From the sequence record LC647030.1: a DNA stretch of 64,000 nt, one strand, 5' to 3'. Within the stretch, counting starts at the first letter, position 1. Each line of letters starts with the position of its first letter. The stretch is from Staphylococcus phage vB_SsapH-Golestan-100. Made by a program: the position numbers and the translations under genes. The notes beneath the pieces were generated by a model, which was given only the letters and a program-made list of their open reading frames with translations, ran no database searches and had not been told where the DNA came from. Of this stretch, positions 3,961 through 57,963 are shown piece after piece.

Positions 3961-3963
3961 GTA

Positions 3964-3992: not shown

Positions 3993-4034
3993 GTATGTTA
4001 TATTAATTTTGAAGAAGACCACAAGATAAAATAC

Positions 4035-4062: not shown

Positions 4063-4093
4063 AATTGCATAGACTATAGAAAGGAGTTATATT

Positions 4094-4888: not shown

Positions 4889-5421
4889 TGGATTATAGAA
4901 TAAGACAAACAAGTAGTTTACTAAGATTTTTAAAAACAATTGATGTCTCAGATGACACAAGAGTATTAGCTAATAGACTAGATGGTGAGCTAACTTTCAC
5001 TTCTAAGTACTATACTCCCAATTTAATACTAAGTGAGCTAGCAGTAAAAGCTTTACAAGACATAAAAAATAATGTAGTACCTTATACGGATACTGACATC
5101 AATAAGGAGAGTATAGTTAATAGCCTTAGAAAAACAGACTTAGCTATAAGAGAGCCTGGTGTTTACCAAATACTACAAACTATTGTATTAGAAGCGTTTG
5201 CATTAATAAACAGTGTTACTGAATCACCTACAGCCCTAAAGTATGTAACAAAGAAAGACATAGCTCTTACTAGAGATAACCTAAACTATGTATCTGATTA
5301 TTTAGGTGATTACCCTGATTACATTACTGTTTTAGATAAGCTAAGAGAACTAGACATCAGTTTTGGTTATATTGAGAACCAATTAGATTTAATGAAAGTA
5401 GGTGTTGTTGATGAGGTATAA
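4888..5421 (+). CDS. baseplate-associated protein (177 aa)
   Basis: ATGA stop/start overlap with the upstream gene, which suggests translational coupling. Position is in the baseplate cluster. Confidence 0.5.
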   Translation: MDYRIRQTSSLLRFLKTIDVSDDTRVLANRLDGELTFTSKYYTPNLILSELAVKALQDIKNNVVPYTDTDINKESIVNSLRKTDLAIREPGVYQILQTIVLEAFALINSVTESPTALKYVTKKDIALTRDNLNYVSDYLGDYPDYITVLDKLRELDISFGYIENQLDLMKVGVVDEV

Positions 5422-6118: not shown

Positions 6119-6136
6119 GAAGGAAGGACAAACGAC

Positions 6137-7183: not shown

Positions 7184-7199
7184 AAAGGAGGGAATATTT

Positions 7200-10100: not shown

Positions 10101-11213
10101 AGTACTGTATTTAAAGAGTATCCTGTTGTTAATAGCTCTGTTGATACCTATCAGTTATATTTAAGTCTGATGAGTCCTGTAGCCACAACAGTTAAACTAT
10201 CTACTACTGTATCAGAAGAGCAAACGTATGAGTTAGAGGCTAATAAAGTATACCGACTACATATCCAAACCCCTATCTCAAATGGTCGTAATGCACCTAT
10301 AAACTTGAATATTAAATCAAGCAGTACTGAGTTGACTTATGGTTCATTTATTTATGTGAATGATGACCAAGACTTAGCTCGATTTATTAAAGAAGAAGAA
10401 CCTATAAAGATAGCAGTACCTATGCAAGAAGACTCTTTACAAGTTAGAGACTTAGAAGTTACAGTACCGCAGTCAGAAGATAGTGAAGATGGTGTTACTG
10501 ACTCTTATCTAACGGTTACTTCAACAGACGGTAGTGAGATACCTCTATATGAGTATCGTGCAGATTCTTTAAACAAGGAGCGTAAAAACTATAGCCTTCA
10601 TGGTAACTACACTAACATTAGTAAAGTTACTTACCACTCAGACGGAATCTTGAAGAATGTTGAGATTGAGCGTTCTATTGATGGTAAAAACTGGAAGCCG
10701 ATAGAAAGTATAAAACCTGACCTAGCTGAAGGTGAGACATTAGCTATTAATAATGAGTTGATTGGTAAATATGGTATTGATGTCTTTAGTTTAGACACTA
10801 TTAATGCAATGTCTAAAGTTCTTCTTAGAAGTATATGGGAGACAAAAATAGAAGAGTTTGAAAATGGTAGTAACACAGACGTTAGTAGTATATCTGACGA
10901 TTTCTTTAATACTACCTTTACTAACCTTGTACATCTAGCTGAATTAAAAGAGAACAAAATCACAGTTATTACTGATGTACGTGGCGGTAATATGGATAAC
11001 TCATCAGGAGAGGTAATTAGTATGAGTGGCTCAGACCCTATATCAAGAGCTGTACTCCATATGAATTCAGAGACCGCAACTAGATACAAGCTACCATTAT
11101 TAGCAGGTTCTTACGTAGCATTAGAAGAACTAGGTGACAAGACTTATAACGATACTGAGTATGAAGTTAATGAGGACTATAAAGCCTATTCTTACAGAAA
11201 AGAAAATAATTAA
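7200..11213 (+). CDS. large tail/baseplate structural protein (1337 aa), TTG start
   Basis: RBS aaaggaggg precedes the TTG start. Long beta-rich protein in the structural module. Confidence 0.55.
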   Translation: MGNFLKYIHPLLKRKKSDKNYEDVNYAIINALDTEISDLEKEAMASKIQSSLKTAKGEYLDLWGEWFYVTRRDNEEDDLYRERIIKFLLLKRGTNNAIIEALRDFLNDYDSYINIYEPFTNIFYTNKSKLDGEDHLMGDYYRFAIIDITLGRKFPVEIIDVINEFKPAGVKFYLTYDHSRDVEGDGIIEMPPANVDITARTHIRTLGGYGGYIRGHVNLGNLTYKSIFDYEDDREGSNNIFKTDNSLINSLDVLGGEAGAGSKYANTAMLTSKAYYPTPQDTAHTFSETSGVTLLDSEFNRGTNKIDNLVGSLKTLGGNKESNIYIGLDVYRYLNLNYPSTVKDYADTSELKNKITKVTKDPKIVFKANALVSPSEPVSAHMYIFNFTNNQWDFLDTVNLDLNGVHKTAELGNLYDNISDTGTVFLKGVVDATEEQIQINVDYLDLSFKDYVKDYYTIMPYEGSVVGYHNLINLAVEVNAYKTYTGSNPEVMLDSYYRPTGFYRIKGLGSTRISHVLKDEDYNMGIESEENSYHYLPTGLLSKEYLKPFTITDDKTYLTLDNNFNFAEYYTLSFMLDNSADINTSEYKLHFYQERKSTNTQELVATFNLSDSSKSSEEVFSQTKQFLKFPYKEAIGDDDINFYVKAESTGQNAQEPLQVKAFVLKNSSIVKDVPSDASSISYGGQSNLRDYTIEDTENGVYLKSPTDGIFDFALSFPDAPKTDKEKPYYYNELIEKGLTPSLLIPYKVTDGTKGSGMVRAYIRDTKTSAIISSFYISNNKDSNSPYDYITIPLSKLNSSSSLYISTSSITGIKIIGNMKIAFYTEDNALTLSSGMSYLPIVSKEYIVKGEMTVKFKMNKKYSLQELQLYYGTRNTQGMENVPYSLENVQQVTSTVVDDTTNEYLFTVKVPTARRGYNIEDVYSLLTDMSKLEVESKDDTTEVFNDYDDTYTIINYSNPIDVTIPIYNSTVFKEYPVVNSSVDTYQLYLSLMSPVATTVKLSTTVSEEQTYELEANKVYRLHIQTPISNGRNAPINLNIKSSSTELTYGSFIYVNDDQDLARFIKEEEPIKIAVPMQEDSLQVRDLEVTVPQSEDSEDGVTDSYLTVTSTDGSEIPLYEYRADSLNKERKNYSLHGNYTNISKVTYHSDGILKNVEIERSIDGKNWKPIESIKPDLAEGETLAINNELIGKYGIDVFSLDTINAMSKVLLRSIWETKIEEFENGSNTDVSSISDDFFNTTFTNLVHLAELKENKITVITDVRGGNMDNSSGEVISMSGSDPISRAVLHMNSETATRYKLPLLAGSYVALEELGDKTYNDTEYEVNEDYKAYSYRKENN

Positions 11214-11222
11214 AAATAATGC

Positions 11223-11251
11223 TTGCATACTACTTGTAGTTATGTTATACT
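11223..11251 (+). promoter_or_regulatory. promoter TTGCAT-17-TATACT, embedded in the loop of an 8-bp inverted repeat (11219-11268)
   Basis: Read directly from the sequence. Confidence 0.45.
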
Positions 11252-11325
11252 ATAGTAGTAGCAAGCATATACATGATTTATAGCTTTTGTATGTTATATT
11301 ACTAAAAAAGAGGAGAGATTCAAAG

Positions 11326-11847
11326 ATGGCAGTAGCTACTTATAACTCACATGTTGAGTCAGCAAAATACTTTTTAGACAAAAACGCATCAACATATTTA
11401 GCAATAGGAAAGACATCTACATGGTCTGATGAGGAAAACCCGCCTCAAGATGACCCTAATGCAACAAAATTAGAAGAAGTAATAGGTTATAAAAAAGCTG
11501 ATAAGGTTTCATTATGTAGACCTTTAGTTAGTGGAGAAGAGACTACATTTACAAAAATTGTTTATGGGAATAAAACTTGGGTCTTAGTACCTAAAGAACA
11601 AGCTACAGAAGAAGGAGCTAAGTGGCTATACGCACATGCTACTATTGAAGCTGATGACTTACCATTAGGTATGTACCGACAAGTTGGTATCCACGTAGAC
11701 TTAACACCTGGAAGTGGAATCTCTAAATTAAATCTTTTACCATCTGAAGTAAGCAATTTAGGTACTTTAATGGCTATTGATAATAGAGAGCCTCAAAACC
11801 GTATTGCTTCAAGTTCTGTAGAAGAAGCTTTTATCTTAGCATTTTAA
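11326..11847 (+). CDS. tail protein (173 aa)
   Basis: RBS gaggag precedes the ATG at 11326. The ATG at 11287 used by the ORF track lies inside the promoter hairpin. Confidence 0.5.
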   Translation: MAVATYNSHVESAKYFLDKNASTYLAIGKTSTWSDEENPPQDDPNATKLEEVIGYKKADKVSLCRPLVSGEETTFTKIVYGNKTWVLVPKEQATEEGAKWLYAHATIEADDLPLGMYRQVGIHVDLTPGSGISKLNLLPSEVSNLGTLMAIDNREPQNRIASSSVEEAFILAF

Positions 11848-11868
11848 TAAGGAAGGAGAACAACACTA

Positions 11869-14800
11869 ATGGCTTATGATTTTTCAAGCAGACCATATTA
11901 TGATAGATTTAACCAAAGCAAGAATATAACAAGAGTTCTATTTAAACCCGATGTTCCCTTACAAAACTCAGAATTGAATGAGATGGCATCAATCCAATCT
12001 AGTGCACTTCAATTATTAGGAGATTCTATCTTTAAAGATGGAGACATGCAGTCGGGACTGAACTATACGATAGATGGAAATAATGTATTAACAGTTAACC
12101 CTGGTTACTTATATATTCAAGGAAAAATGAGATACTATGATTCTAACGACAGCGTTAAGTTAACAGGAGTAGGTAAAGAACAAGTAGGTATTAAAGTCGT
12201 TGGTTCTATCGTAACTAGCGATGATGATAATAGTTTATTAGACCCTGCTACAGGAGCTCCAAGTTATTTCTCTGAAGGTGCAGACCGTTTTAAAGAGGAA
12301 TTAAAATTAACATTAAACGACCCAACATCTGCTACTATCTATACATTCCAAAATGGAGACTTATTTACCAAACCGAGTGACCCTCAATTTGATAAAGTAG
12401 TTAAAGTTATGGAACAACGTACTTTTGAGGAATCAGGTTCTTACAAAGTACAAGGCCTTACAATCTTCTCAGCGGAAGAGCAAGATGAAGAAAGTGGTTT
12501 TGTTAATATTGTAGTAGATACAGGAGTAGCTTATGTAAAAGGTAGACGTATTGAAAAACCTACTTCTACACATATTGCTCTAGACTCAGCTACTGATTTA
12601 GAGAATGCACAGAATGAGAGTACTATTTATAATAAATCTACTGATAGAATTAGATTAGCTAATACACCTGTCAAAGACATTAATCGTGTATCGGCATCTG
12701 TTGCAATCACTAAAGAACGTAAAACAAGAGATGCTATTGGAGACTCTCAAGATTATTTAGCTAATAACACAGCGTATAAAATAACTAGAGTTTGGACTGA
12801 GAACTCAAGTGGTGATGTAACTAAAGAATATAAACAAGGAGAAGACTACAACCTGATTGATGGTCAAGCAGTAGATTGGTCTCCTGGAGGTCAAGAACCT
12901 GCATCAGGAGCTTCTTACTATGTAGCATATGAGTACACTAAAAGATTAGAAAAGGGTGTAGACTTTGTTGTAGAAACTGAAGGTGAAGGACAATTTAAAC
13001 GTTGGTTCCTTAATTTCTCTAAAGCAACAGGTGTTAAGCCTATTGACCAATCATTAGTGCAAGTAGACTATACTTTCTACTTAGCTAGACAAGACTTACT
13101 TAGCTTGAATGTAAATGGTGAAGTAGTTGTACTTAAAGGTAAACCTAACTTAATGAGATTAGTTAACCCACCAATCCAGGAAGACCCTGAGACATTACAA
13201 TTAGGTTATGTTACGGTCTTACCTAACTCTACAGAAACAGACTGTGTTACTGATGCTATAACTAACTTATCTATGGAGCAATTACAAAAAGTTAAAACAC
13301 GAGTAGATAACTTAGAAATTAACCAAGCCATTAATGCATTAGATGATGGAGCTATGGAAGGTCAGAACCCGTTATACTTACGTTCAGTATTTAGTGAAGG
13401 CTTTATTAGTTTAGATAAAGCTGACATTTCACATCCTGACTTTGGTGTAGCATTTAGTTTTGATGATGCAGAGATTACACTTCAGTTTACAGAAGAAGTA
13501 CAATCACCGACTGTTTCTCAGATTACAACAAATGCTCATGTATGGGGACGTATCATATCAGCTCCATTTACAGAGGAACTTTCCATCTATCAACCATTAG
13601 CTTCGGAACCTTTAAACGTTAACCCTTATAATATCCCTAACAAACAAGGGGTTATGAAGTTAACACCATCTGAAGATAACTGGATTGATGAAGAACGTGT
13701 TACTATTACAGAACAGAAAACAAAAACAATTACTATGAACCGTTGGTGGAGACACCCTGGTCGTGATTTTGGTTCTAAACAAGATTACTACCAAAGTAAT
13801 ATTCAACTTGATAAAGGTCAAGTGTGGGAAGGTAAGTCATATGCTTATGATAAAGAGCATGGACGTACAGGTACATTACTAGAATCAGGTGGTCATAGAA
13901 CGTTAGAAGAAATGATTGAGTTTATTAGACAAAGACAGGTTAAGATTGATGTCAAAGGATTAAATCCTAATGATAATGACTTATACTTACTGTTTGATGG
14001 CATCCGTTGTGCCTTAACTCCTGAGTCAGGATTTAGAAAAGGTAGTGAGCCTGGTACAGTTATGTCTGATGAGAAGGGTAGAGTTAAAGCAACATTTGAG
14101 ATACCAGCAGGTGTACGTTGTGGTAACAGAGAGGTTACATTGAAAAATGCTAACTCTACAAGTGCAACGACTTACTCAGCTCACGGACGTAAGAAGATTA
14201 CACAAGACATTATCTTAAAAACACGTGTTACGATTAACTTAGTTGACCCATTGGCTCAGTCATTCCAATATGATGAGAACCGTATTATATCATCATTAGG
14301 TTTATACTTCGCATCGAAAGGTGACGCTAACTCTAATGTTACAGTACAGATTAGAGGAATGGGAGACCAAGGTTTCCCTAACAAAACTGTCTATGCAGAA
14401 ACTGTATTGAATGCTAGTGAGGTTAAAGTGTCTAAGAATGCTAGTGCAGAAACTAGAGTATACTTTGATGACCCTATGATGGCAGAAGCAGGAAGAGAGT
14501 ACGCTATTGTTATCATGACAGAAAATAGTGACTACACTATGTGGGTTGGTACTAGAACACAACCACGTATTGATAAACCTAGTGAGAACATCTCAGGTAA
14601 TCCATATGTACAAGGTGTATTATTCAGTTCATCAAACGCATCAACATGGACTCCACATCAAAACTCTGACCTTAAATTTGGTATCTATACACCAGTATTT
14701 GAGAAAGAGGCAGTAATAGAGTTTGACTCTATGAAGAATGTTAAAGCTGATAGACTTGTATTAATGTCTACATACTTAACACCTGAAAATACAGGCTGTG

Positions 14801-45048: not shown

Positions 45049-45376
45049 GTTTGAGCAAGCTGTAGAAGAGTACTTAAAGCAAGAAGGGGTCAACAAGACC
45101 CCTATTCCTTATATAGACATTAAACGTAGAATGCAAGAATGGTTTGAATCAGGAGAACCAATCTTAGTTGAAGATAGTAGTTTCCCTAGTTCTAGCTCCA
45201 CTAAGATTTATATTAATTATGTAGGAGATAGATGGGTTGGAGGATACTCTGAAGTATGGTATTTAGGTGAGGTAGTTAAAGTACCTGAAACTATTCATTA
45301 CTCAGACCTATATATCACGAACCCTACAATTAAAAAACGTATCGTACCTGTAAAGGAAAACCCATATGAAGTCTAA
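45029..45376 (+). CDS. hypothetical protein (115 aa)
   Basis: Overlaps both neighbouring genes. Confidence 0.4.
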   Translation: MEAQKTKFEQAVEEYLKQEGVNKTPIPYIDIKRRMQEWFESGEPILVEDSSFPSSSSTKIYINYVGDRWVGGYSEVWYLGEVVKVPETIHYSDLYITNPTIKKRIVPVKENPYEV

Positions 45377-46019: not shown

Positions 46020-46110
46020 CTACCTTACCCTTTCTGCTATATTGTCTATAAGCCTTACTACAGTAGTGCTATATTAATTTTGAAAACAAATACAGAAAGG
46101 GGAATTTTTC

Positions 46111-46485: not shown

Positions 46486-47331
46486 ATGGCAGTTGAATCA
46501 AAAGACATTCTTGAAATCATCAAAGAGAAAGCCCCAGCTATTGATAACACATATTTACAAGTAAAGACAACACCTGATGGTTACACAGGAACTTATGAAG
46601 GGTTCTATTCTTACCTAGTTCAAAAAGATGGAGAAGAGTATGGTGTTTACCCTATTGAAACTACAGGAGCTAATGAGCTTAAAGTGTTTAAGAAATCTCC
46701 AATTATCATGACAGATGGAGAGGAAGTACACTTTGTAGTTAGTACTATGGATGACCCATTCCAACATCCTATCATTAAACAAGAGAGTGTTGGCAAGCAA
46801 ACAAAAGAACATGCTGTACTTCAAGCATTCTTAGCTTTTGCTAGCTCACGTTTCTCTATGACAGTTTACCACATTATGATTGCTGACGGTGAAGGTAGCT
46901 TCTCTTCAGTAGCTAATGCAGATGCTTTTGGTAACTTAGTAGAAACTAACGCTCAAGCTTCAGAAGAAATTGTTAAAGGTAAATTCGATAAGAACGCACA
47001 CGTGCAAGAAGTAGCATTTGATAAAGAGTCTGTTGAATTAAATATTGGTGAGACAGAACAAATCTTAACGCTTATTACACCTACTTATGCTTCTAATAAA
47101 GATGTTGTACTAACATCTTCTAGAGAGACAGTAGCTAAGATTAACAGTACAGGTCTTATTACAGCTGTAGCAGAAGGTGAAGCAACTATCACTGTTACAA
47201 CAGCTGATGGTAAATTACGTGCTAAAGCTACAGTAACAGTAAAGCCTAGCACAGGTAGTCAAGAGCCTGAAGCACCTACAAATGTGAAAGTAGACGCACA
47301 AGAAACAAGCGCTAACGTATCAGCAGAATAG
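46486..47331 (+). CDS. Ig-like (Big_2) domain virion protein
   Basis: C-terminal segment GEATITVTTADGKLRAKATVTVKP is Big_2-like. Confidence 0.55.
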   Translation: MAVESKDILEIIKEKAPAIDNTYLQVKTTPDGYTGTYEGFYSYLVQKDGEEYGVYPIETTGANELKVFKKSPIIMTDGEEVHFVVSTMDDPFQHPIIKQESVGKQTKEHAVLQAFLAFASSRFSMTVYHIMIADGEGSFSSVANADAFGNLVETNAQASEEIVKGKFDKNAHVQEVAFDKESVELNIGETEQILTLITPTYASNKDVVLTSSRETVAKINSTGLITAVAEGEATITVTTADGKLRAKATVTVKPSTGSQEPEAPTNVKVDAQETSANVSAE

Positions 47332-47399
47332 GTAGCATATAACAGCAGGGGCAACTCTGCTGATTATAAATATTTTAAAACAACTGGAGAGATGTACAA

Positions 47400-47921
47400 A
47401 TGGCAAACAAACTAAACTTGTATAAGGGAACCGAACTAGTAAAATCTGTAGATGCAAACCAAGAAGGTGCTACTGAAGTGCTTATCGAAGGGTTAAAGTC
47501 TAATACAAACTTTGCTAAAGGTGACTATAAGGTTTCTTTCAGCAATGATAGTGGTGAGTCTAATAAAGTAGATGTCCCAAGCTTCAAGACTTTAGCTATT
47601 TTAGTATCAGCTATTCAAGTAACTAATGCAACGGAAGCCTTAGAAGTCGGGGGCACAGCAACAATTAGTGCTTCAGTAACTCCTGAGAATGCTTCTGATA
47701 AGACTTTAGTATTTGTCTCAAACAATGAAGAGGTAGCAACAGTTGATGGCAGTGGTAAGATTACTGCTGTAGGTGAAGGTAGTACAAAAATTTCAGTAGC
47801 ATCTAATGATGGTAATGCTTCTTCAGAAGTAACAGTAAATGTAACTGTACCAGCACCATCAGAACCTGCTAATGTAACTGTAACACCAGCAGAAGAGTCA
47901 GCTACAATTTCAGTAGACTAA
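47400..47921 (+). CDS. Ig-like domain protein (173 aa): N-terminal ~65-aa domain plus a Big_2-like domain
   Basis: Segment GSTKISVASNDGNASSEVTVNVTV. Its N-terminal domain is shared with the 74-aa ORF and with the 561-aa beta-helix protein. Confidence 0.5.
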   Translation: MANKLNLYKGTELVKSVDANQEGATEVLIEGLKSNTNFAKGDYKVSFSNDSGESNKVDVPSFKTLAILVSAIQVTNATEALEVGGTATISASVTPENASDKTLVFVSNNEEVATVDGSGKITAVGEGSTKISVASNDGNASSEVTVNVTVPAPSEPANVTVTPAEESATISVD

Positions 47922-47940
47922 TAGGAAGGATGATTAACTA

Positions 47941-48165
47941 ATGGCTAAAACATTAAAAGTATACAAGAAATCAGGAGAGGAAGTTGCTCAACAAGAAGTT
48001 AGTGGCACAGGAGCTACCACAGTAGAGATTACTGGGCTTACAGCAGGCACTGACTATGCAGAAGGTGATTTCCAAGTATCCTTCACAGATGGTTCTAAGG
48101 AATCTAAAAAAGTAGATGTACCTGCATTTACAACAAATGCTTCAGAACCAACAGAAGGAGCTTAG
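47941..48165 (+). CDS. stand-alone copy of the ~65-aa N-terminal domain (74 aa)
   Basis: Aligns with residues 1-64 of the 173-aa protein, for example at VDVPAFTT versus VDVPSFKT. Confidence 0.4.
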   Translation: MAKTLKVYKKSGEEVAQQEVSGTGATTVEITGLTAGTDYAEGDFQVSFTDGSKESKKVDVPAFTTNASEPTEGA

Positions 48166-48170
48166 TAGAT

Positions 48171-48204
48171 AGACTAGGATTAATTTCCTAGTCTTTTTTT
48201 TTTT
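48171..48204. terminator. bidirectional rho-independent terminator
   Basis: 9-bp stem agactagga/tcctagtct, then a T11 run followed immediately by an A8 run. Confidence 0.6.
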
Positions 48205-48227
48205 AAAAAAAATATCCGCTTCTATGC

Positions 48228-48257
48228 TTGACAGCTATGAAGCGGTTATGATATACT
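48228..48257 (+). promoter_or_regulatory. promoter TTGACA-18-TGaTATACT, with the -35 element in the loop of the hairpin ccgcttc/gaagcgg (48216-48245)
   Basis: Read directly from the sequence. Confidence 0.55.
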
Positions 48258-48285
48258 AAGTATATACCAATTAGGAGGAGATATT

Positions 48286-48531
48286 ATGAGTAACGTATTT
48301 GCACAAGAACAATTTATTGACCGTTTAGAACAAGAAGGATTAGAAGTAGTAGAAGAGGATAGCTATTACACAGTAGAAGATGTAGAAGGTCATATTGCTA
48401 TTGTAGACTTTGTAGGTGACATAGTAAACGTTTCTGATAATGAAGGGGTTAGAGTATCACATAACGTTGACCAAATCTACTTAGCGTTCTATGCAGTGAT
48501 GGACGCACTGGATTATGAATTTGATGAATAA
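48286..48531 (+). CDS. small acidic protein (81 aa)
   Basis: RBS aggagg. Confidence 0.5.
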   Translation: MSNVFAQEQFIDRLEQEGLEVVEEDSYYTVEDVEGHIAIVDFVGDIVNVSDNEGVRVSHNVDQIYLAFYAVMDALDYEFDE

Positions 48532-48536
48532 AGTTC

Positions 48537-48565
48537 TTGACACCACTCAAGGACTTTAGTATAAT
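48537..48565 (+). promoter_or_regulatory. consensus promoter TTGACA-17-TATAAT
   Basis: Read directly from the sequence. Confidence 0.6.
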
Positions 48566-48595
48566 AGTATTATAATCAATTAGGAGGAATTAGTT

Positions 48596-49018
48596 ATGAA
48601 ATTACTAAAACAGATTATTAAGGTATTAGATGAGAGAGGTATTCAAGTAAATAACTTAAACATAGACGATGTGGTTAATGGAGAGTACGGAATTGAAATC
48701 AACAAAGAAATCACTATTGTCCATAGAGAAGGTTTGTATTATGCACTATATACGGAAGATGCTAGCTTAGAGGAGACATATTACAGTTCTCTAACAGAAG
48801 CATTAGAAAAGGTAGCTGACTATTTAAGTAGAGTAAAGGAAGGCTCTATCGTAAAATCTTTTCTTGGTGTATTCACATATAAAGTTATCAAACACAACAG
48901 TAAAGATTTGTATAACTTACTAAATGTAGATGACAACACCCTATTATATACAGAGTGTGAAAGTATGGACTCTATTCAAGACAAGATTAACAGAGGTCAG
49001 TTTTATGCAGAACAATAA
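48596..49018 (+). CDS. hypothetical protein (140 aa)
   Basis: RBS aggagg. Confidence 0.5.
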   Translation: MKLLKQIIKVLDERGIQVNNLNIDDVVNGEYGIEINKEITIVHREGLYYALYTEDASLEETYYSSLTEALEKVADYLSRVKEGSIVKSFLGVFTYKVIKHNSKDLYNLLNVDDNTLLYTECESMDSIQDKINRGQFYAEQ

Positions 49019-49337
49019 ATGGTACGCACTATGTGAATATAAAGGTAAAGGGAAGAATAAAAAGCCTTATCAAGTCCAAGCCTCTACAAGTAAAGAAAAG
49101 CTTTTAGATAGAAAGGATAGTTTAGAGTTAGAGTATCCTGATAGAGAATATGCAATAAAGTTAACAACAACCTTTGACAAAGAAAGAAAGTGGAGCGGGC
49201 TTAATCCGCTTCTCTTACTTAGAGTATATAAGCAATTGTATATTGTAAGTAGGAGTGATGACCCTACTAGATTAAATGTTGCATATAGCCTTCTGTTCAC
49301 ACAGAGGGTTTTTTATTTAAATGTTGACAGGATTTAA
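49005..49337 (+). CDS. hypothetical protein (about 110 aa)
   Basis: RBS agagg precedes the ATG at 49005. It overlaps the upstream gene by 14 nt. A terminator overlaps its 3' end. Confidence 0.3.
   Translation: MQNNKWYALCEYKGKGKNKKPYQVQASTSKEKLLDRKDSLELEYPDREYAIKLTTTFDKERKWSGLNPLLLLRVYKQLYIVSRSDDPTRLNVAYSLLFTQRVFYLNVDRI
49289..49318 (+). terminator. rho-independent terminator
   Basis: Stem ccttctg/cagaggg with one G-U pair, followed by TTTTTTATTT. Confidence 0.45.
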
Positions 49338-49352
49338 GTAGTGTGATATAGT
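49324..49352 (+). promoter_or_regulatory. promoter TTGACA-17-TGaTATAGT
   Basis: Read directly from the sequence. Confidence 0.55.
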
Positions 49353-49382
49353 TAGTATATAAATTAATTAGGAGGAAAAGTA

Positions 49383-49568
49383 ATGGAGAATAGAGACATT
49401 ATCAGTAACATATTAACAGAGTTAGAGTACATTGATACTAGTGAACTAAACCATAAACAACAAATGATGGTAGCTAGAGTAGAATCATTGTTAGATGACT
49501 TAGCATGGGAATTACAAGAAGAGGAAGCGGTTGAGTTTATGAAACAAATCAATGAGGAGGAAAAGTAA
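49383..49568 (+). CDS. small acidic protein (61 aa)
   Basis: RBS aggagg. Confidence 0.45.
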   Translation: MENRDIISNILTELEYIDTSELNHKQQMMVARVESLLDDLAWELQEEEAVEFMKQINEEEK

Positions 49569-50971
49569 TGAAACTATATTTAAACAGTAATATCGCAGAA
49601 GGAACACCTGAAGAGTTAGTAACTTATAAAGAACTATTAAAGGAGAGAGGCCTAGACTCTGAGAAGTCATTGTTCCACTTTGGACATATGCATCAACCAA
49701 CTGAAGAGGAAGCGGATGAACAAGAAGTAGATAATTCTGTATATGATAAAGGAGCTTTCTATACAGTAACTGAGGAGGCTGAGGACTCACCATTACCTGT
49801 AGGGGCTATTCTCCAACATCTACACGGTAGAATATTCAGTGACTCTAAAGGACAACAATGTATCATCTCTAGACCATCTTTTGTAGATAGAGGTAATACA
49901 CATTGGTTTGATGATAGTATTAACCAAGACCGTTTTGAACTAGCTAAACAATTAGGTATCCAACTAACGGACACTACAGACCTAGCACAAGCAACTGAAG
50001 GTAAGTACTTCAAAGTAACAGAAGAGCACTCAGACTTAAGTGTAGGAGACCTTGTTACGATTGCTGAGGATGATAGAGATAACCTACCTCAGTGTAAGGA
50101 TAAGCATGGTAACTTCTATTATGTATACCTAGGTGACCTAGAGCTAGTAGAAGATAACTCAGAATCAACTCTAAGCTCTACAGATGAAGCGGAAACCCCT
50201 TCTACAGAACTTAAAGTAGGAGATAGAGTAAAAGTATTAAAGAGTGAAGGAGGAGCTGTAGGAGAGGCTACTGTAACTGCTGTACTAGAAGATGGTGATG
50301 TAAGATTAGAAGGCAAGAGTGATAGTGGTGTGTACTCATATAGATGGAGTAACAATATTTCAAACTTAGAGAAGGTTAAAGAAAAACCTGCATCCTTTGG
50401 GGCAATACAAGCTAAAGCCTACTTAGAGGATAAGTCAATAGACCAAGTAATTGAAGAAGTACAAAGCAAACACAAGCAAGAGTCTGATAATGCAAGAGTA
50501 GAGGAAGAAATCTATGCCTATTATGAAGTTGTAGACCCTGATGTATTTGCTAGTAGTGTAGAGAAAGGGACTGTATTCAAGGTGATAGGAAATACTTATA
50601 CTCTACTAAACCAAGAAGGTAAGGACAGAGAATATATTAACGTAGTTACTTCTACAGGATTGACTCAAACAAGCCCTCTGAGAGATAGTGTGATTAAACC
50701 TATCATTAATGATTCATTCATTGCAGAACGCTTCAAGTTTGCTAAAGAAGTAGGCATTGTGCTTGCAGTAGATACAGACTTTGAGGAAGAGTGTAAAGAC
50801 CACCACTTTAAGGTTACAGAGGAGGAACCACTCTCTAACTTTACCCCTACAGACATTCTAACTGTCCGTAGAGACGATAACACTAATGCTATTGCTTTCC
50901 AAGACCGTAATGGCAAGACACAGTATACACTACTGGTAGATGTAAGAGAGATTGCTAGACCAAGTAAATAA
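49568..50971 (+). CDS. acidic protein (467 aa) with an internal tandem duplication of about 75 aa
   Basis: Segments FELAKQLGIQL...KYFKVTEEHSDLS and FKFAKEVGIVL...HHFKVTEEEPLS align as two copies of one domain. Confidence 0.5.
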   Translation: MKLYLNSNIAEGTPEELVTYKELLKERGLDSEKSLFHFGHMHQPTEEEADEQEVDNSVYDKGAFYTVTEEAEDSPLPVGAILQHLHGRIFSDSKGQQCIISRPSFVDRGNTHWFDDSINQDRFELAKQLGIQLTDTTDLAQATEGKYFKVTEEHSDLSVGDLVTIAEDDRDNLPQCKDKHGNFYYVYLGDLELVEDNSESTLSSTDEAETPSTELKVGDRVKVLKSEGGAVGEATVTAVLEDGDVRLEGKSDSGVYSYRWSNNISNLEKVKEKPASFGAIQAKAYLEDKSIDQVIEEVQSKHKQESDNARVEEEIYAYYEVVDPDVFASSVEKGTVFKVIGNTYTLLNQEGKDREYINVVTSTGLTQTSPLRDSVIKPIINDSFIAERFKFAKEVGIVLAVDTDFEEECKDHHFKVTEEEPLSNFTPTDILTVRRDDNTNAIAFQDRNGKTQYTLLVDVREIARPSK

Positions 50972-50981
50972 ATAACCATCG

Positions 50982-51016
50982 ACCGCTTCTAGATAGATAA
51001 AGAAGCGGTTCTTTTA
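50982..51016 (+). terminator. rho-independent terminator
   Basis: Stem accgcttct/agaagcggt followed by tcttttatgttt. Confidence 0.55.
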
Positions 51017-51018
51017 TG

Positions 51019-51120
51019 TTTGAGTAACATAATTTAAGATGCTGTCATACCAAGGTTTAAGTAAGGTTATTACAAGGCTTAAGTAAGAAAAAATAGAGTA
51101 AATCCTATATTTGAGTAACA
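51019..51120. repeat. two pairs of direct repeats in an intergenic region
   Basis: tttgagtaaca occurs at 51019 and 51110. aagg(t/c)ttaagtaag occurs at 51052 and 51075. Confidence 0.5.
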
Positions 51121-51126
51121 AAGTGT

Positions 51127-51155
51127 TTGACAGCCCCTCTATTATATGTTATCAT
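51127..51155 (+). promoter_or_regulatory. promoter TTGACA-17-TATCAT
   Basis: Read directly from the sequence. Confidence 0.55.
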
Positions 51156-51185
51156 TAGGTATAGTCAATTAGAGGAGGAATTAAT

Positions 51186-51524
51186 ATGAGAATGGTTAGT
51201 ATATATGAGTATTTCAAAGACAAGGAAGGACAACGGTTGAGTGTAGGAGATAATAAAGAGGTACTGTTCAACTCAGTACGTTACCACGGTTCTGAAGAGG
51301 AGTTGGCTTTATACTTTAAGTATAAGGAGTACCCAATAGCAATAAGAGTAGATAAACCTCAAGCAGATTTAAGATTACGATTAAACAAGAAGATAACAGG
51401 GCTACAAAAGGATACCTTTACCCCTGTAGAGAACCTAGACTCAACCTTATTAACCTATCTAGGTAAGTTTGCAGAAGAGATGGAAGAAAAAGTAGAGTAT
51501 AAACTATTTGATTGGAGGAATTAA
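51186..51524 (+). CDS. hypothetical protein (112 aa); paralog of the minus-strand 129-aa ORF at 53367-53756
   Basis: RBS agaggagg. Segment YEYFKDKEGQRLSVGDNKEVLFNSVRYHGSEEELALYFKYK aligns with the 129-aa protein. Confidence 0.5.
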   Translation: MRMVSIYEYFKDKEGQRLSVGDNKEVLFNSVRYHGSEEELALYFKYKEYPIAIRVDKPQADLRLRLNKKITGLQKDTFTPVENLDSTLLTYLGKFAEEMEEKVEYKLFDWRN

Positions 51525-51525
51525 T

Positions 51526-51627
51526 ATGGTTACAGTAGGAGCGTTATTTACAGGATTCTTTGTAGTCCTTGTAATAGGTATAATGATAGCAGGACTCGTT
51601 ACACTAGTAATAGATAACAAGAAGTAA
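51526..51627 (+). CDS. 33-aa hydrophobic peptide with a single TM helix
   Basis: RBS GGAGGA lies 7 nt upstream. The ATG is 1 nt after the upstream stop. The peptide is MVTVGALFTGFFVVLVIGIMIAGLVTLVIDNKK. Confidence 0.35.
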   Translation: MVTVGALFTGFFVVLVIGIMIAGLVTLVIDNKK

Positions 51628-51650
51628 ATAAGAGAAGCGGAGGAGATATA

Positions 51651-51878
51651 ATGAGTTTAGTAACAGTAATAGTATTAACTGTAGTCATAGCCATGTTGTT
51701 AGGCTTAATAGCAAGTAAACTAATATTGTGGTTTGTAGATGCTTGTCAAAGGGATGAGAACAATATAACAGAGATTAGAGTAGTATTAACCCTATTAATA
51801 GTCAGCTTAGGAGTAGACCTAGCCTTTGCTGTTGATGGAGCAGTAAGAATACAAAATAGAATCCTATACTTTTTGTAG
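51651..51878 (+). CDS. small membrane protein (75 aa)
   Basis: RBS ggaggag. Two hydrophobic helices. Confidence 0.45.
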   Translation: MSLVTVIVLTVVIAMLLGLIASKLILWFVDACQRDENNITEIRVVLTLLIVSLGVDLAFAVDGAVRIQNRILYFL

Positions 51879-51885
51879 ATAGAAG

Positions 51886-51912
51886 CGGAGACCTTTACGG
51901 TCTCTTTTTTTT
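51886..51912 (+). terminator. rho-independent terminator
   Basis: Stem gagacc/ggtctc followed by a T8 run. Confidence 0.6.
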
Positions 51913-51960
51913 GTCTATAATAGCTTGACAAATAGGGTGAAGTATGCTTTATTGACAAAG

Positions 51961-52250
51961 GCGTAATAGTGTGGTAGTGGAGGGTAGAGGTTGAATAGTA
52001 GTGACATGGAGGCTGATAGATAGAGTCGAAGTCGGTTAGCGTGCTTGGGGCTTCCTCTATTCTTTTACCATTTGTTTATTTCCTTCCTCTACTATTCCTC
52101 CCTTTGATTGGCTGATTAATTGTTTGGTTGTTTCTCTATTACTCTTCCCTTCCTTACTCCCTATGCTATTGTCCCTCTATTGTTTTCCTACTCCTCCATT
52201 ACTCTACTCCTATATAATAAAAGGCAATAGAGCTATTACCCTACTGCCTT
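51961..52250. other. non-coding strand-asymmetric region, a candidate structured RNA or cis-acting site
   Basis: No ORF of 60 codons or more. Plus strand is C-poor (G/A/T) over 51961-52040 and almost pure C/T over 52050-52215, with degenerate CCTCTAyT repeats. Confidence 0.3.
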
Positions 52251-52283
52251 TATACTTACTATTGTTATTACTATTATTATACT

Positions 52284-53276
52284 CTACATGTTAAGTAACT
52301 TACGAGCCCAATCAGGAGAATTATCACAAAACGCTTTAACTTCTTCTATGTTATTTATAACCCCTTTTTGAATCTTGTAGATATACACAAAGTATTTAGT
52401 TATGAAAGCTTGGAAAGGTTCATACCTATTACCCTCTATAAACTCATACTGCATCTCTTCTGATAATAAATTTATCTCTGTAAAGAATGTATTATACATA
52501 GTATCAAATAAGCAAGGTATATCCTTACTATACTCACTTAGTAATAGTATTCTTTCCTCATGACTTAGCGATACATCAAAATCAATAATACTTTTAATAG
52601 TTTTAGGTAATGAGTCGTAGTCTAGTAGTATAGATAATAGTTCTTTCTTATTAAATATAAGGTTGAGTTTCTTGTATGCGACTATAAAGTCTTCTTTGAC
52701 TACCTTTTTATCTACTAAGTCTTGTAATTTACTGTAATAGTTTTTAATTTGTTTATTCATATTAACCTTAGTAAATGCTGTCTCTAGATTATAAAATTCT
52801 TGTATAGAACTACTCTCTATATTAACACCTAACTTATGTTTAAGCCATTTTGATTCTAGCTCAGATAGTCTACGTTCATAGATAGATTCATCTTTTGTTT
52901 CTATATGGTCTCCATGTATAGAGTCATAGTATACAGCATCAATTATATAAGTATCAGCATTATCAAATCCGTATTTATCTAAGGCTTTTTTAAGTAGTTT
53001 ACCACTACCCTTATACTTTGAATCGGGCTTTCCTTTATGTTTCCCTATATATGCTCTACCTGATTGTTTAAACACTGTTATATAGACATAACCATACATA
53101 TGTTCTGAAAGTTTTTCAGACTGACCTCTTACGCTATGACCAAAAGTAAAAACATAGCTATAATGTTTTAATCTTCCTTTTCTACATTCTGATTGTACAA
53201 TGTTATTTCTAACGTCTCTTACTTGAATTTCACCTAAACCTTCTTGGTATACAAAATTATTTATTTTTTCTGTCAT
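52284..53276 (-). CDS. free-standing GIY-YIG homing endonuclease
   Basis: Segment YGYVYITVFKQSGRAYIGKHKG, then KYGFDNAD and ESKWL, follows an I-TevI-like arrangement. The RBS AGGAG lies 9 nt before the ATG at 53276. Confidence 0.65.
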   Translation of the reverse strand: MTEKINNFVYQEGLGEIQVRDVRNNIVQSECRKGRLKHYSYVFTFGHSVRGQSEKLSEHMYGYVYITVFKQSGRAYIGKHKGKPDSKYKGSGKLLKKALDKYGFDNADTYIIDAVYYDSIHGDHIETKDESIYERRLSELESKWLKHKLGVNIESSSIQEFYNLETAFTKVNMNKQIKNYYSKLQDLVDKKVVKEDFIVAYKKLNLIFNKKELLSILLDYDSLPKTIKSIIDFDVSLSHEERILLLSEYSKDIPCLFDTMYNTFFTEINLLSEEMQYEFIEGNRYEPFQAFITKYFVYIYKIQKGVINNIEEVKAFCDNSPDWARKLLNM

Positions 53277-53306
53277 ATCTTTCATCTCCTTATTTGATAT
53301 ACTACT

Positions 53307-53335
53307 AGTATATAATAAAACTCTATCCAAGTCAA
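53307..53335 (-). promoter_or_regulatory. minus-strand promoter TTGACT-17-TATACT, with the -35 element in the loop of hairpin 53319-53346
   Basis: Read directly from the sequence. Confidence 0.5.
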
Positions 53336-53366
53336 TAGATAGAGTTAAAATAGTTATTTTGTTTTC

Positions 53367-53756
53367 TTACTTGTTATCCCACTCAAAGTCTAGTTCTAAG
53401 TCATTTATCTCTCCTGAGTTAACTTTCTCTATAAACCCTTCTAACTGGTGTTTAATAGCTGTACTGAAAGTAGATATAGGTACTACAATAACCATAGAGG
53501 CCTGAACTTTTTTATCTATTAAGAATTTTAAACAATTATCATCTTCAGTACCTTTTATAGTTATTCTTAAATCCATGCCTTTATAGCTGAACACTAAGTA
53601 TAAGCTCTCATCACTACTTAAATTTCTATGGCTTACATAGGATAGATATACCTCATAACTACCTACTTTTAATCTCATGTTTTCTCTTTCTTGAAAATAG
53701 TCACTGAGCTTACTTATGTTATAATTATCCATATTCTCCTCCTTATTATTTACCAT
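53367..53756 (-). CDS. hypothetical protein (129 aa); paralog of the plus-strand gene 51186-51524
   Basis: RBS ggagga. Confidence 0.5.
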   Translation of the reverse strand: MVNNKEENMDNYNISKLSDYFQERENMRLKVGSYEVYLSYVSHRNLSSDESLYLVFSYKGMDLRITIKGTEDDNCLKFLIDKKVQASMVIVVPISTFSTAIKHQLEGFIEKVNSGEINDLELDFEWDNK

Positions 53757-53944
53757 CGTTCAATAGATACAATATGTTTGGTGTCAATAATAACCTTTTT
53801 ATCTTTACCCCATTTAGTTACTTCTATATAATCATTACCCATAACATCTCTGTATACAGAACCTAACGCTTTGTAACTATTATAATAGGTGTATTTTCTA
53901 TCATCAACAGTTCTTACTGTGTAGTTATATTTTCTACTTATCAT
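53750..53944 (-). CDS. hypothetical small protein (64 aa)
   Basis: ORF in the early-gene block. Confidence 0.35.
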   Translation of the reverse strand: MISRKYNYTVRTVDDRKYTYYNSYKALGSVYRDVMGNDYIEVTKWGKDKKVIIDTKHIVSIERW

Positions 53945-54144
53945 TATAGTTCCTCCTCATCAAACCACATTTCTAATACAGTGTCTGTTTCTGTATCTAT
54001 ATATAAATTTAACTCCCCGTGCATATAATGACTAATTACATCAGAGTCTGAGAACCCTACTTCATGACCGTCCCAATCTGACAACCAATGTAATCTATGA
54101 TAATCTAAATTTTCTAGTGTTATTCCTTGTTCAGTATTTAACAT
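53944..54144 (-). CDS. hypothetical small acidic protein (66 aa)
   Basis: RBS ggaagga. Confidence 0.4.
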   Translation of the reverse strand: MLNTEQGITLENLDYHRLHWLSDWDGHEVGFSDSDVISHYMHGELNLYIDTETDTVLEMWFDEEEL

Positions 54145-55909: not shown

Positions 55910-55939
55910 TATAAACCTCCTCTATTAGTTGTTAATATG

Positions 55940-55977
55940 ATTATATAATAAAAAACTACCTATGTCAATAGGTAGTT
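55940..55977 (-). promoter_or_regulatory. composite minus-strand terminator and promoter
   Basis: 10-bp hairpin 55954-55977 followed by a T-run. TTGACA spans the loop and stem (55963-55968). A 17-nt spacer leads to TATAAT at 55940-55945. Confidence 0.55.
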
Positions 55978-55985
55978 TTAGCTTA

Positions 55986-57671
55986 CTAATACTGTATTTC
56001 TTTCCCAGCAATAAGTTTATTTTGATATTGTCCTTGACGGATGTAGATAGTGCTTTCAGGTGCTCCTGAACTTATACTGAATTCACTACCAAACCCTGCG
56101 CAATTGTCTAACCACATATTACTTCCTGAAGATGTTTGGAAATCTTTTCCTTGGTAGCTCTCAAAGCCTATACATCCTAGATTCCAAGAGTTAGTACCCT
56201 GATTAACATCAGCTATATTTCCTCCATCATTTCTACCGTAAGTACCGTTAACCCGTATGACAGTTAATCCATCATGAACAGTAGAGCCATTATTAGATTT
56301 AGCACCTGCTGTACCTTTTTCAAATCCATTATCTAAACCTATACAATCTATCTCAGTTATAATAGGTTTAGAAGAATCCGCACCTATATGATAGTTAAAC
56401 CCGTCCATATAGTTATTAGATGCTGTTGATTTACTTACTACTACTTCTTTACCTCCAATAACCTCAAGACCATTACCATTAGTTTGAGAAGAGAAGTTTA
56501 AAATACAATTATTAACATATAGATTATTGTTTTTGTTTAGCTCAAATCTAGCTGGTCTAGCTCCCCCATATATGTTTAGTTTTTCTATATAGAAATTATT
56601 TGGTACATTAGTAGCTAACAAGTTCTGAGAAGCTAACAATGGTATAACCATATTATTAGGAGTTTTAGAATTAAAGTTAACAAAAACTTTTGTTCCGTCA
56701 GAAAACCAAGAAAAAGGAGTCTCCTCTACCATAGCTAAGGAGCTAACATTTACAAATTCATTATAGATGTTGTTACTTGCCTCACTAAAGTCTACGACTC
56801 TCTTAACTGCTGACCTTGTAAACTCATAAGTGTTATTCTTACCATAGGACTTAACCCATGTCGGCTCATCTGCCATGAATAGATTAACATTAGAGCCTAG
56901 GCCTATTATGTTTATACTCATATTGTTTATTGGTAATAAAAGAACACCGTTAGTTCTAAAGTAGTTACCCTCGTTAATATAAAGAGTATCACCAGTACTT
57001 AATACTGATTGAGCTTTTTTTAATGTTTTAAAAGAGCTATTTTGAGTTGAGCCATCGTTACTATCATTACCATTAGTACCATCTACATAAACCTCTTTAC
57101 CGCCTGTAACTTTATTATCTTCTATGTTGTATTTCACACCAAAGGTACCTCTAGCATCAGTCATTATTCTACCTTTTAAAGGGTATTCTTTTACAGGAAA
57201 ATCTAAAGGAGTGTTTACAGTAATAGGTAACTTAGGAGCAAAGTTACCATCAAGCCCTGGTATACCTTGAGCACCTTGTTCCCCTTTTAACTCTTGTTTG
57301 TCAGCCTCTGTTAAATCATTAAAAGTTAACTTATCACCTTTAGCACCTCCTATAGACTCTAACCACTCTTCAGGTGTACCAGTAAACCCATTATCTACTG
57401 CTATATCATAAGCAGATTTAGGCTTAACTAGTAAGTGGTCTTTGAAGTAGAAAGAAATCTCTTTATAAGAAGATTCTAGTGTTGTAAACTCAGGTACTAC
57501 GACCTTCTCTGATTCATAGTTGTCTCCCATCCAAGCTATATAAAACTCCCCTTGAGGGTATGTAGTATTTGGAGCCAGGTTAGCTATAATAACGGAGCCT
57601 TGGTCACCTTCTATATTATAGCCTTTTGCTAATAAATTACCTTCCTTATCATAAGCTTCTAAATGTGGCAT
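55986..57671 (-). CDS. right-handed parallel beta-helix (pectin-lyase-fold) protein with an N-terminal ~65-aa domain shared with the virion Ig-like proteins
   Basis: The C-terminal half has repetitive N/G-rich beta-helix-like rungs (NNCILNFSSQTNGNGLEVIGG...). The N-terminus, including VVVPEFTT, aligns with ORFs 47400 and 47941. Confidence 0.55.
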   Translation of the reverse strand: MPHLEAYDKEGNLLAKGYNIEGDQGSVIIANLAPNTTYPQGEFYIAWMGDNYESEKVVVPEFTTLESSYKEISFYFKDHLLVKPKSAYDIAVDNGFTGTPEEWLESIGGAKGDKLTFNDLTEADKQELKGEQGAQGIPGLDGNFAPKLPITVNTPLDFPVKEYPLKGRIMTDARGTFGVKYNIEDNKVTGGKEVYVDGTNGNDSNDGSTQNSSFKTLKKAQSVLSTGDTLYINEGNYFRTNGVLLLPINNMSINIIGLGSNVNLFMADEPTWVKSYGKNNTYEFTRSAVKRVVDFSEASNNIYNEFVNVSSLAMVEETPFSWFSDGTKVFVNFNSKTPNNMVIPLLASQNLLATNVPNNFYIEKLNIYGGARPARFELNKNNNLYVNNCILNFSSQTNGNGLEVIGGKEVVVSKSTASNNYMDGFNYHIGADSSKPIITEIDCIGLDNGFEKGTAGAKSNNGSTVHDGLTVIRVNGTYGRNDGGNIADVNQGTNSWNLGCIGFESYQGKDFQTSSGSNMWLDNCAGFGSEFSISSGAPESTIYIRQGQYQNKLIAGKEIQY

Positions 57672-57732
57672 ATTATAGTCTCCTATCTATTTGTGTATTA
57701 TATGAGTAATATAACATCTTATTCACATTAGG

Positions 57733-57963
57733 TTAGACACAATCTACCATCCACTCCCAATCCCAAAAGTCTCTTATCTTATAACCATCTAACTCATGTT
57801 TATTGCCTTTTAGTATACCTGTAATAATATACCTATCATGGCCTTCTCTTACGTATTCTTCACCCAGCTCTTCTAAGAGGTCTTTTGTATGATTTTGAGT
57901 ACCTGCATATATTGCTGTTTTACTATCCTCCTCAATTACATATAGAGAATAAATCTCATACAT
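57733..57963 (-). CDS. hypothetical protein (76 aa)
   Basis: ORF in the early-gene block. Confidence 0.4.
   Translation of the reverse strand: MYEIYSLYVIEEDSKTAIYAGTQNHTKDLLEELGEEYVREGHDRYIITGILKGNKHELDGYKIRDFWDWEWMVDCV

Follow-up and report, generated by a model that had tools for sequence, protein, structure and literature searches.

In the DNA of Staphylococcus phage vB_SsapH-Golestan-100 (sequence record LC647030.1, of which a stretch of 64,000 nucleotides, here called the window, was analysed), hairpins that look like transcription terminators coincide with sequences that look like promoters, which raises the question of whether one short element can stop one transcript and start the next. 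An earlier note on this DNA held that a hairpin carrying TTGAC in its loop or upper stem, followed by a −10 hexamer, occurs at least five times on both strands, including a plus-strand site at 48216-48257 and, as a related case, an inverted repeat at 11219-11268. Three minus-strand sites are as it described them, whereas the sites at 48216-48257 and 11219-11268 differ. We consider it very likely that the three minus-strand elements are composite cassettes in which a promoter is nested in a terminator and that the inverted repeat at 48216-48245 is a distinct thing, a pair of opposed Chi sequences.

Matches to a 7-kb part of the window (47000-54000) are confined to myophages of Staphylococcus and Mammaliicoccus; S2G3 and Fi4S2, phages of S. 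capitis, match best, with patches of about 88% identity, and the window is therefore, as judged by these matches, that of a Twort-like phage (Herelleviridae, Twortvirinae). Late and replication genes occupy the plus strand up to about 48.1 kb. They are followed by a 3.7-kb plus-strand block of small early genes (48.2-51.9 kb), which aligns with 6.8-12.5 kb of S2G3 and whose first promoter is a homologue of the Kayvirus terminal-repeat promoter p1, and a minus-strand cluster of small genes begins at 52.3 kb. The whole window gave no match to Rfam at gathering thresholds.

Anatomy of the minus-strand cassettes and selection on their stems

The three minus-strand elements, at 59709-59671, 55979-55940 and 53346-53307, share the anatomy that we observed in each: the −35 hexamer TTGACW is the loop of a hairpin with a stem of 10-12 bp, the 3′ arm and the T-run occupy the 17-nt spacer, and a near-consensus −10 hexamer follows directly. 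The cassette at 59709-59671 (AAAGAACCTA-TTGACT-TAGGTTCTTT, then TTTATTA-TACAAT) has a 10 bp hairpin at 59709-59684, its −35 TTGACT at 59699-59694, its T-run in the spacer and its −10 TACAAT at 59676-59671; it sits between the stop of an open reading frame (ORF) of 170 amino acids (aa) at 59721 and the ATG of a 117-aa ORF at 59627, and its copy at 18706 of S2G3 is identical. The cassette at 55979-55940 (AAAACTACCTAT-TGAC-ATAGGTAGTTTT, then TTATTA-TATAAT) has a 12 bp hairpin at 55979-55952, TTGACA at 55968-55963 and TATAAT at 55945-55940; it lies 3′ of a gene for a tail-fibre/hydrolase-like protein of 561 aa and 5′ of an 87-aa ORF, and is missing from S2G3. The third, at 53346-53307 (AACTCTATCTA-TTGACT-TGGATAGAGTT, then TTATTA-TATACT), has an 11 bp hairpin including one G.U pair at 53346-53319, TTGACT at 53335-53330 and TATACT at 53312-53307, and is followed by a homing-endonuclease-like gene of 330 aa with its ATG at 53276.

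A consensus scan calls each of these sites terminator-like and, separately, promoter-like. As terminators, all three pass with 10-12 pairs, 3 G-C pairs and at least five T in 8 nt, and their hairpins begin 6-20 nt past the stops of same-strand ORFs that end at 59721, 55986 and 53367. As promoters, they agree with the consensus at 10-12 of 12 positions with a spacer of 17 nt. An extended −10 of the form TRTGN, the TGn of which is carried by most non-nested promoters in the window, is absent from them: each of the three nested spacers has TTATTA at its end, and the T-run takes up the room that TG would need. The Kayvirus promoters p195, p205 and p208 likewise lack the TG, and a TG-extended −10 is not obligatory for this class of Twortvirinae sigma-A early promoters. 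Leaving aside the final terminator at 52251, the one further minus-strand terminator match between 52.3 and 64 kb is a weak 7-pair hairpin at 52529 within a coding region, and thus every internal intergenic terminator of the minus-strand cluster carries a promoter.

Based on this anatomy, a double function can be proposed. On the RNA of the upstream gene, the stem of 10-12 bp and the U-run would make up an intrinsic terminator. Read as DNA, these 40 bp would serve as a strong host sigma-A promoter, in which the loop would provide the −35 element, the 3′ arm and the T-run the spacer, and the −10 element would follow. A cassette of this kind would close one early transcription unit and open the next without taking up extra space, and would also shield a strong promoter from read-through.

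The simplest alternative is that AT-rich terminators overlap promoter-like hexamers by chance, in a genome whose G+C content is 33% and whose weak promoter-like matches are no commoner than in shuffled sequence. The observed statistics are of a different order. The window holds five promoter-like sites with a stem of at least 10 bp (the three minus-strand cassettes, 48529-48558 and 49324), whereas 200 shuffles that preserve dinucleotides gave 0.08 on average and never more than 2, which puts the pattern well beyond chance. The probability of a stem of at least 10 bp around a random hexamer is 0.004, the RNA folds of the three cassettes have energies of −12.8 to −15.1 kcal/mol (z −3.7 to −4.9), and the architecture is kept across genera and also in T4-like pelagiphages. 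The shuffle test and the conservation in relatives refute chance overlap, for which we see virtually no room. The inverted repeat at promoter 49324 was considered as a sixth case; its 10 bp stem consists of A and T with G.T pairs allowed, its fold has a z of −0.28 against shuffles, and it was dropped.

To see what the stem is selected for, we scanned viral contigs with the pattern CTATTGACW-N10-TTTATTATA, in which only promoter parts are fixed and the upstream arm and ten bases are free. A stem of at least 8 bp enclosing the −35 element is present in 25 of the 79 matches, compared to a background rate of 0.028; the other matches are ordinary hairpin-less promoters, and the pattern therefore does not by itself impose a stem. 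The stems among the matches are diverse (ctctatcta, gaaaccta, aactaccta, aaggcggga, gacccc and agtcccaa). When 11 cassettes sharing one register are aligned, pairing holds in 95.9% of cells versus 25-54% when the partners are slid, and compensatory two-sided changes were observed in 6 of the 11 pairs, figures that are partly circular since this set was selected for having a stem, which leaves the pattern scan as the unbiased test. The 53346 cassette differs from its S2G3 copy at 13730 by two one-sided A/G changes, and pairing is kept solely via G.U; three further cassettes have U.G at one stem position. Wobble pairs are tolerated in the sense-strand RNA, whereas the opposite strand would have C.A. 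Because the stems differ, covary and use G.U pairs that give C.A on the other strand, the comparison points to selection on the stem as an RNA hairpin, that is, as a terminator, rather than as a cruciform or a symmetric protein site.

The same observations bear on the suggestion of the earlier note that the hairpin in DNA or RNA, or a protein bound to it, gates access to the promoter and so provides temporal control. On this idea, a DNA cruciform formed by the palindrome, or a dimeric regulator bound over the −35 element, would turn early promoters off in a timed manner. In its favour, the inner core CCTA-TTGACW-TAGG is nearly invariant among staphylococcal cassettes, and Finstrlova et al. speculate on a factor that binds the −35 region (PMC9241854). 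Arms of a palindromic operator should be conserved between sites, and here the outer arms vary and covary, while T.G wobbles stand at differing positions in the copies and leave C.A on the opposite strand; on covariation and wobble pairs the operator and cruciform readings were rejected. Furthermore, the CTA before the −35 element is also common in hairpin-less Kayvirus promoters, and the inner stem differs greatly in the versions from pelagiphages and other phages. Temporal control fares no better, as Kayvirus promoters of the nested type belong to the ordinary early or middle classes; the p68 equivalent in phage K drives a 'middle' unit, according to a machine-read supplementary table with errors. 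We thus regard gating as very unlikely.

Counterparts in Kayvirus and T4-like phages

Twortvirinae early promoters have the consensus TTGACW-17-TATANT, and the supplementary tables for the Kayvirus vB_SauM-515A1 (515A1) list terminators and early promoters derived from steps in RNA-sequencing coverage (Kornienko et al. 2020, PMC7698491). We found identical 40-bp sequences in both tables, listed as t69/p68, t194/p195, t198/p199 and t204/p205, the first of which reads AACCACCTA-TTGACA-TAGGTGGTT-TTTTATGC-TATAGT. Variants of the design are present as well: p208 has the same hairpin with a broken T-run, the −35 element is placed in the 3′ arm in t165/p166 and t174/p175, and late promoters lie within large terminator loops in t75/pL74, t109/pL110 and t157/pL158. 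Our scan of the 515A1 genome recovered the same nested sites. The promoters p68, p166, p175, p195 and p205 are among 36 curated up-step promoters, and each of these five opens a transcription unit; t69, t194, t198, t204, t165 and t174 are in the terminator list, which was compiled by a similar coverage-step approach (PMC7698491). The anatomy, the covariation and the 515A1 tables all fit the proposal that each minus-strand site is the terminator of the upstream gene and the promoter of the next.

Among the 58 published early promoters of 515A1, 7 are nested, 12 stand in tandem with a terminator (5-19 nt from the stem to the −35 element) and 39 have no adjacent terminator; nesting is thus the compact end of a continuum of terminators followed by promoters, the arrangement that prevails in these phages. 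Phage St14.GH shows the tandem layout doing the same job: downstream of its homologue of the 561-aa gene stand an ordinary terminator and, 14 nt on, CTATTGACA-17-TATACT. The pairs of 515A1 and phage K resemble those of the window in that they come from the same subfamily, follow TTGACW-17-TATANT and have the nested layout. They differ in location: the nested copies of 515A1 are in its left arm (p68) and in the right-arm region of small ORFs (119-138 kb), whereas the cassettes of the window lie elsewhere, in the left arm. The Kayvirus and phage K papers (PMC7698491, PMC9241854, PMC11598898) tabulate terminators and promoters apart and do not remark on the nesting, and our literature search turned up no account, for Twort-like phages, of a design with the −35 element in the loop. 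As a side observation, the 515A1 terminator t13 (contig L080, position 5128, minus strand; repeated in L082), AAAGAAAAGG-GTTGA-CCTTTTCTTT, contains a nested TTGACC-17-TATACT that the promoter list lacks; downstream on that strand there is no gene, and t13 may be a silent or antisense nested cassette.

The tandem promoters also help to judge a stronger version of the coupling, in which the polymerase that releases its RNA in the T-run is reused at the nested −10 element and start site, tying downstream output to upstream transcription. The geometry is suitable, given that RNA release is expected 7-9 nt past the stem, within the spacer/−10 region of the next promoter, and the nested promoters are without the TG-extended −10 that most others carry. 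Yet the same type of promoter works in the tandem layout, and the T-run, by taking up those positions, is enough to account for the missing TG, so that we deem such a hand-over improbable. If true, it would chain early units kinetically with separate RNAs and would offer a natural compact system for the study of post-termination recycling of bacterial RNA polymerase.

The closest known elements that combine the two functions are the PeSLs, or promoter-early stem-loops, of T4-like phages, each a fusion of a stem-loop that terminates transcription with a strong early promoter of sigma-70 type (Arbiol et al. 2010, PMC2839356; Comeau et al. 2014, PMC4122927). They fall into five subclasses by the position of the stem-loop, which may lie, among other places, over the −35 element or between −35 and −10, they are repeated in hyperplastic regions, and they are implicated in modular shuffling; in reporter assays they show both termination and initiation (PMC2839356, PMC4122927). 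As composite terminators and promoters, the three minus-strand sites fit the definition, and they are likewise repeated among accessory genes, with three nested copies in 12 kb of the left arm plus the hairpin promoters in the repeat block. Common to both are an early host-type promoter along with a stem-loop in a short gap between the upstream stop and the downstream ribosome binding site, repeated motifs and an association with accessory genes. PeSLs also lie at indel boundaries, as do two of the three nested cassettes relative to S2G3, in a region where most indels have no cassette. The differences are that the window belongs to a Staphylococcus Twortvirinae phage and not to a T4-like one, that is, to an unrelated family (Herelleviridae) with a Gram-positive host; that its stems are A/U-rich with 3 G-C pairs, while PeSL stems are polyG/polyC; that the −35 hexamer makes up the loop exactly, with the spacer taken up by the U-run; and that PeSLs recombine with one another to give mini-circles or chimeric cassettes, whereas the cassettes of the window are known from their sequence. 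Five matches to our pattern share the nested stem AAAGGCGGGA-CTATTGACA-TCCCGCCTTT-TTTATTA-TATAAT, and one of these (contig L002) is related by blast to T4-like Pelagibacter myophages; thus, an unrelated lineage of phages has the very same design. Our literature search found no paper that links PeSLs to staphylococcal or Twort-like phages. The cassettes work like PeSLs, a kind of element that is already known, and we make no claim of descent from the PeSLs of T4.

Cassettes at gene insertions and replacements

Alignment with S2G3 places two cassettes at the edges of inserted or replaced genes. Relative to S2G3, the window has an insertion at 55918-57753 (minus strand), which comprises the late motif TGTTATATTA at 57716-57707, the 561-aa gene at 57671-55986 and a nested cassette, and which lies between two S2G3 genes that overlap by TAATG. 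The encoded protein has an Ig-like N-terminal region followed by the tail-fibre/hydrolase-like region. The cassette at 55979-55940 is the 3′ end of this insertion and, going by its sequence, would restart early transcription for the next gene. Across the 53346 cassette, the homology to S2G3 ends exactly at the start codon below it, and the homing-endonuclease-like gene (52284-53276, minus strand; phrog_314) stands in place of three S2G3 genes. Thus, two of the three nested cassettes are observed exactly at an insertion or replacement boundary. Beyond these, S2G3 has a second copy of the hairpin promoter of the 48537 type in the plus-strand block, and the two copies flank an extra small ORF.

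The insertion also invites comparison with morons, the promoter-gene-terminator insertions in phage genomes described by Hendrix and colleagues. Like a moron, 55918-57753 is a self-contained inserted gene with a promoter upstream and a terminator downstream. It differs from one in that its promoter is a phage late promoter and not a host-type promoter active in a lysogen, and in that its terminator also holds a promoter that would restart the interrupted operon.

The cassette is observed to be widely dispersed. The segment 53349-53282, which takes in the 5′ leader and ribosome binding site as well as the hairpin and promoter, has 174 matches across 110 Twortvirinae records, 68-115 nt long and with 80-93% identity. 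The flanking coding sequence aligns in S2G3 only, and the Kayvirus matches, at 131-140 kb in the right arm, are non-orthologous. One contig (L053) holds two cassette copies with the same stem, ctctatcta. Considering (i) this recurrence at non-orthologous positions, (ii) the repeated stem within one contig, (iii) the position of two of the three cassettes at S2G3 boundaries, together with the duplicated hairpin promoter that flanks the extra ORF of S2G3, and (iv) the demonstration that PeSLs do so in T4-like phages (PMC2839356), the element could be a recombination cassette, offering about 70-100 bp of homology at gene boundaries through which accessory genes are swapped with their own stop and start signals. 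About 40 of the roughly 70 shared bases, however, are fixed by function (the −35 element, T-run, −10 element, start region and ribosome binding site), and the likeness may be convergent. This reading is compatible with a composite terminator/promoter, and we put it forward tentatively; a role in recombination is only suggested. In our main reading, the composite cassettes very likely also serve as module boundaries, genes being inserted or replaced along with them.

Several points weigh against the account of the cassettes given here, in addition to the partial circularity of the covariation set. The U-run of the cassette at 53346-53307 is short and broken (UUUUAUUAU). Termination and initiation at the three sites of this phage are attributed by homology, and the Kayvirus support consists of coverage steps of limited resolution at cassettes of the same design in other positions, not at orthologous sites. 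Finally, most indels between the window and S2G3 in this region are plain gene gain or loss with no cassette, which counts against the recombination reading as well.

The plus-strand hairpins, the Chi cluster and implications

The plus-strand site at 48216-48257, which the earlier note had counted among the terminator/promoter hairpins, does not belong with the minus-strand cassettes. The upstream 74-aa ORF is ended by an ordinary intrinsic terminator at 48171-48204 (plus strand), with a 9 bp stem in a hairpin at 48171-48194 followed by T10, which stands apart from the promoter that follows. This promoter, the first of the terminal-repeat-like block (48216-48257, plus strand), has its −35 TTGACA at 48228-48233, an 18-nt spacer and a TG-extended −10 TATACT at 48252-48257; the segment 48228-48257, which is homologous to Kayvirus p1, has conserved counterparts in 76 records. 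The inverted repeat over it, 48216-48245, consists of CCGCTTC (48216-48222) and GAAGCGG (48239-48245), with 7 bp arms and a 16-nt loop (−15.9 kcal/mol, z −4.0), and fails as a terminator for want of a T-run. The arrangement CCGCTTC...GAAGCGG is kept in 515A1, S2G3, Stab22 and MCE-2014 with loops of 13-26 nt, again with no T-run.

GAAGCGG is the Chi sequence of S. aureus, recognised by AddAB/RexAB (PMC8022716, PMC11442139 and bioRxiv 10.1101/2021.07.08.451572, citing Halpern et al. 2007), and by sequence identity the arms at 48216-48245 are two opposed copies of the host Chi. The window has 10 copies of GAAGCGG versus 0.73 expected, 7 on the plus and 3 on the minus strand, and every one lies at 48216-51888; they include an inverted pair at 50983/51002. 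In an unbiased comparison of 7-mers, no other word came close to GAAGCGG in specificity for the region, with 10 copies inside it and 0 outside (p ~2e-22). All 36 copies in 515A1 lie within its two 7.65-kb terminal repeats, 18 in each, and none in the 132 kb between. Copies inside genes are read in the frame GAA-GCG-G. Host Chi occurs about once per 8 kb along the chromosome, co-oriented with replication, according to the bioRxiv and PMC sources cited above, whereas in the block at 48216-51888 it occurs about once per 0.4 kb, in both orientations and often as inverted pairs that form hairpins, and in the covered sequence only in the repeat at the genome ends. A scan of the collection for TTGACA-N4-5-GAAGCGG-N3-TG gave mostly chance matches and three Twort-like loci.

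A top-strand GAAGCGG would act on an enzyme that enters from the right end of the genome, and CCGCTTC on one that enters from the left. In 515A1, the first left-active Chi is at 403, 12 nt upstream of the −35 element of p1 (415). Considering the known effect of Chi on AddAB/RexAB, the most likely role of the cluster is to protect the ends of the linear genome or to favour recombination between these ends. In a more speculative reading, the hairpin at 48216-48245 may be part of an unremarked Chi shield in the terminal repeats that could blunt the attack of RexAB on injected ends and also the capture of CRISPR spacers there. A search of the literature returned no paper describing the clustering of Chi in Twort-like terminal repeats. 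Some caution about this interpretation comes from its basis, as the identity of the motif is taken from publications and the position of the genome ends from terminal-repeat homology, and from the span of sequence covered in two relatives: the 33 copies of Stab22, all within its annotated repeat 1-12225, come from its first 14 kb, which extend about 1.8 kb beyond that repeat, and the 19 copies of S2G3, at 2113-12296, come from its first 22 kb.

The inverted pair at 50983-51008 (plus strand), CCGCTTC-N12-GAAGCGG followed by TTCTTTTATG, stands directly after the stop of a 467-aa ORF and is terminator-like, with a Chi pair as its stem; it was missed by the terminator scan because its loop is 12 nt. 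Terminator t11 of Kayvirus 515A1 is built like it, with the arms in the opposite order. The terminator that closes the block, at 51887-51921 (plus strand; GGAGACC-TTTAC-GGTCTCT and T8), holds TTTACG-16-TATAAT with the first hexamer in its loop, and on the plus strand downstream there is only a 56-aa ORF with a TTG start (52124-52294); it may represent a nested cassette that has degenerated, or else a small-RNA promoter. About 300 nt of non-coding sequence (51920-52220), purine-rich and then pyrimidine-rich, separates the convergent clusters; it has no Rfam match, and its fold is like that of shuffles (z −0.32).

Two further hairpins overlap promoter-like sequences and fail as terminators for lack of a T-run. 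The one at 48529-48558, not reported in the earlier note, has a stem of 12 bp, begins at the upstream stop codon and carries in its 5′ arm the −35 element of a TTGACA-17-TATAAT promoter (48529-48565, plus strand). The repeat at 11219-11268 (plus strand), previously offered as a related case, has a different structure: a 15 bp stem with one bulge (−24.7 kcal/mol) encloses the whole of a weak promoter-like site, TTGCAT-17-TATACT (TGTTATACTA), with TTGCAT in the stem and TATACT in the loop. Its neighbours are a tail morphogenetic gene and a baseplate gene, at the place of Kayvirus p121, and of the phage collection only S2G3 and Fi4S2 conserve it. The late motif TGTTATATTA occurs without mismatch at 11292-11301, 40 nt downstream. 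This Kayvirus late motif is also present exactly within 3963-4005 (plus strand) and, as described, at 57716-57707 (minus strand), and with one mismatch, as TGCTATATTA, at 46067-46076 (plus strand); the motif at 3996 follows a terminator by 12 nt and forms a tandem pair like t33/pL32 of Kayvirus. At 45085-45103, a palindrome, AGGGGTC-AACAA-GACCCCT, is terminator-like on both strands; its minus version contains TTGAC, and it apparently lies within coding sequence.

For the annotation of Twort-like phages, which are in wide therapeutic use, it follows that a predicted terminator may also be a strong promoter, with effects on maps of transcription units and on engineered insertions, and the 40-bp stop-and-restart part would be of use as an insulator in synthetic staphylococcal constructs. 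The Chi sequences packed into the terminal repeats offer a testable explanation of how a linear genome survives RexAB on entry, and this may matter more than the cassettes. With regard to evolution, the cassettes would mark entry and exit points of accessory genes and extend the PeSL idea to an unrelated family on Gram-positive hosts, which hints that large lytic phages relying on the host polymerase have converged on one solution.

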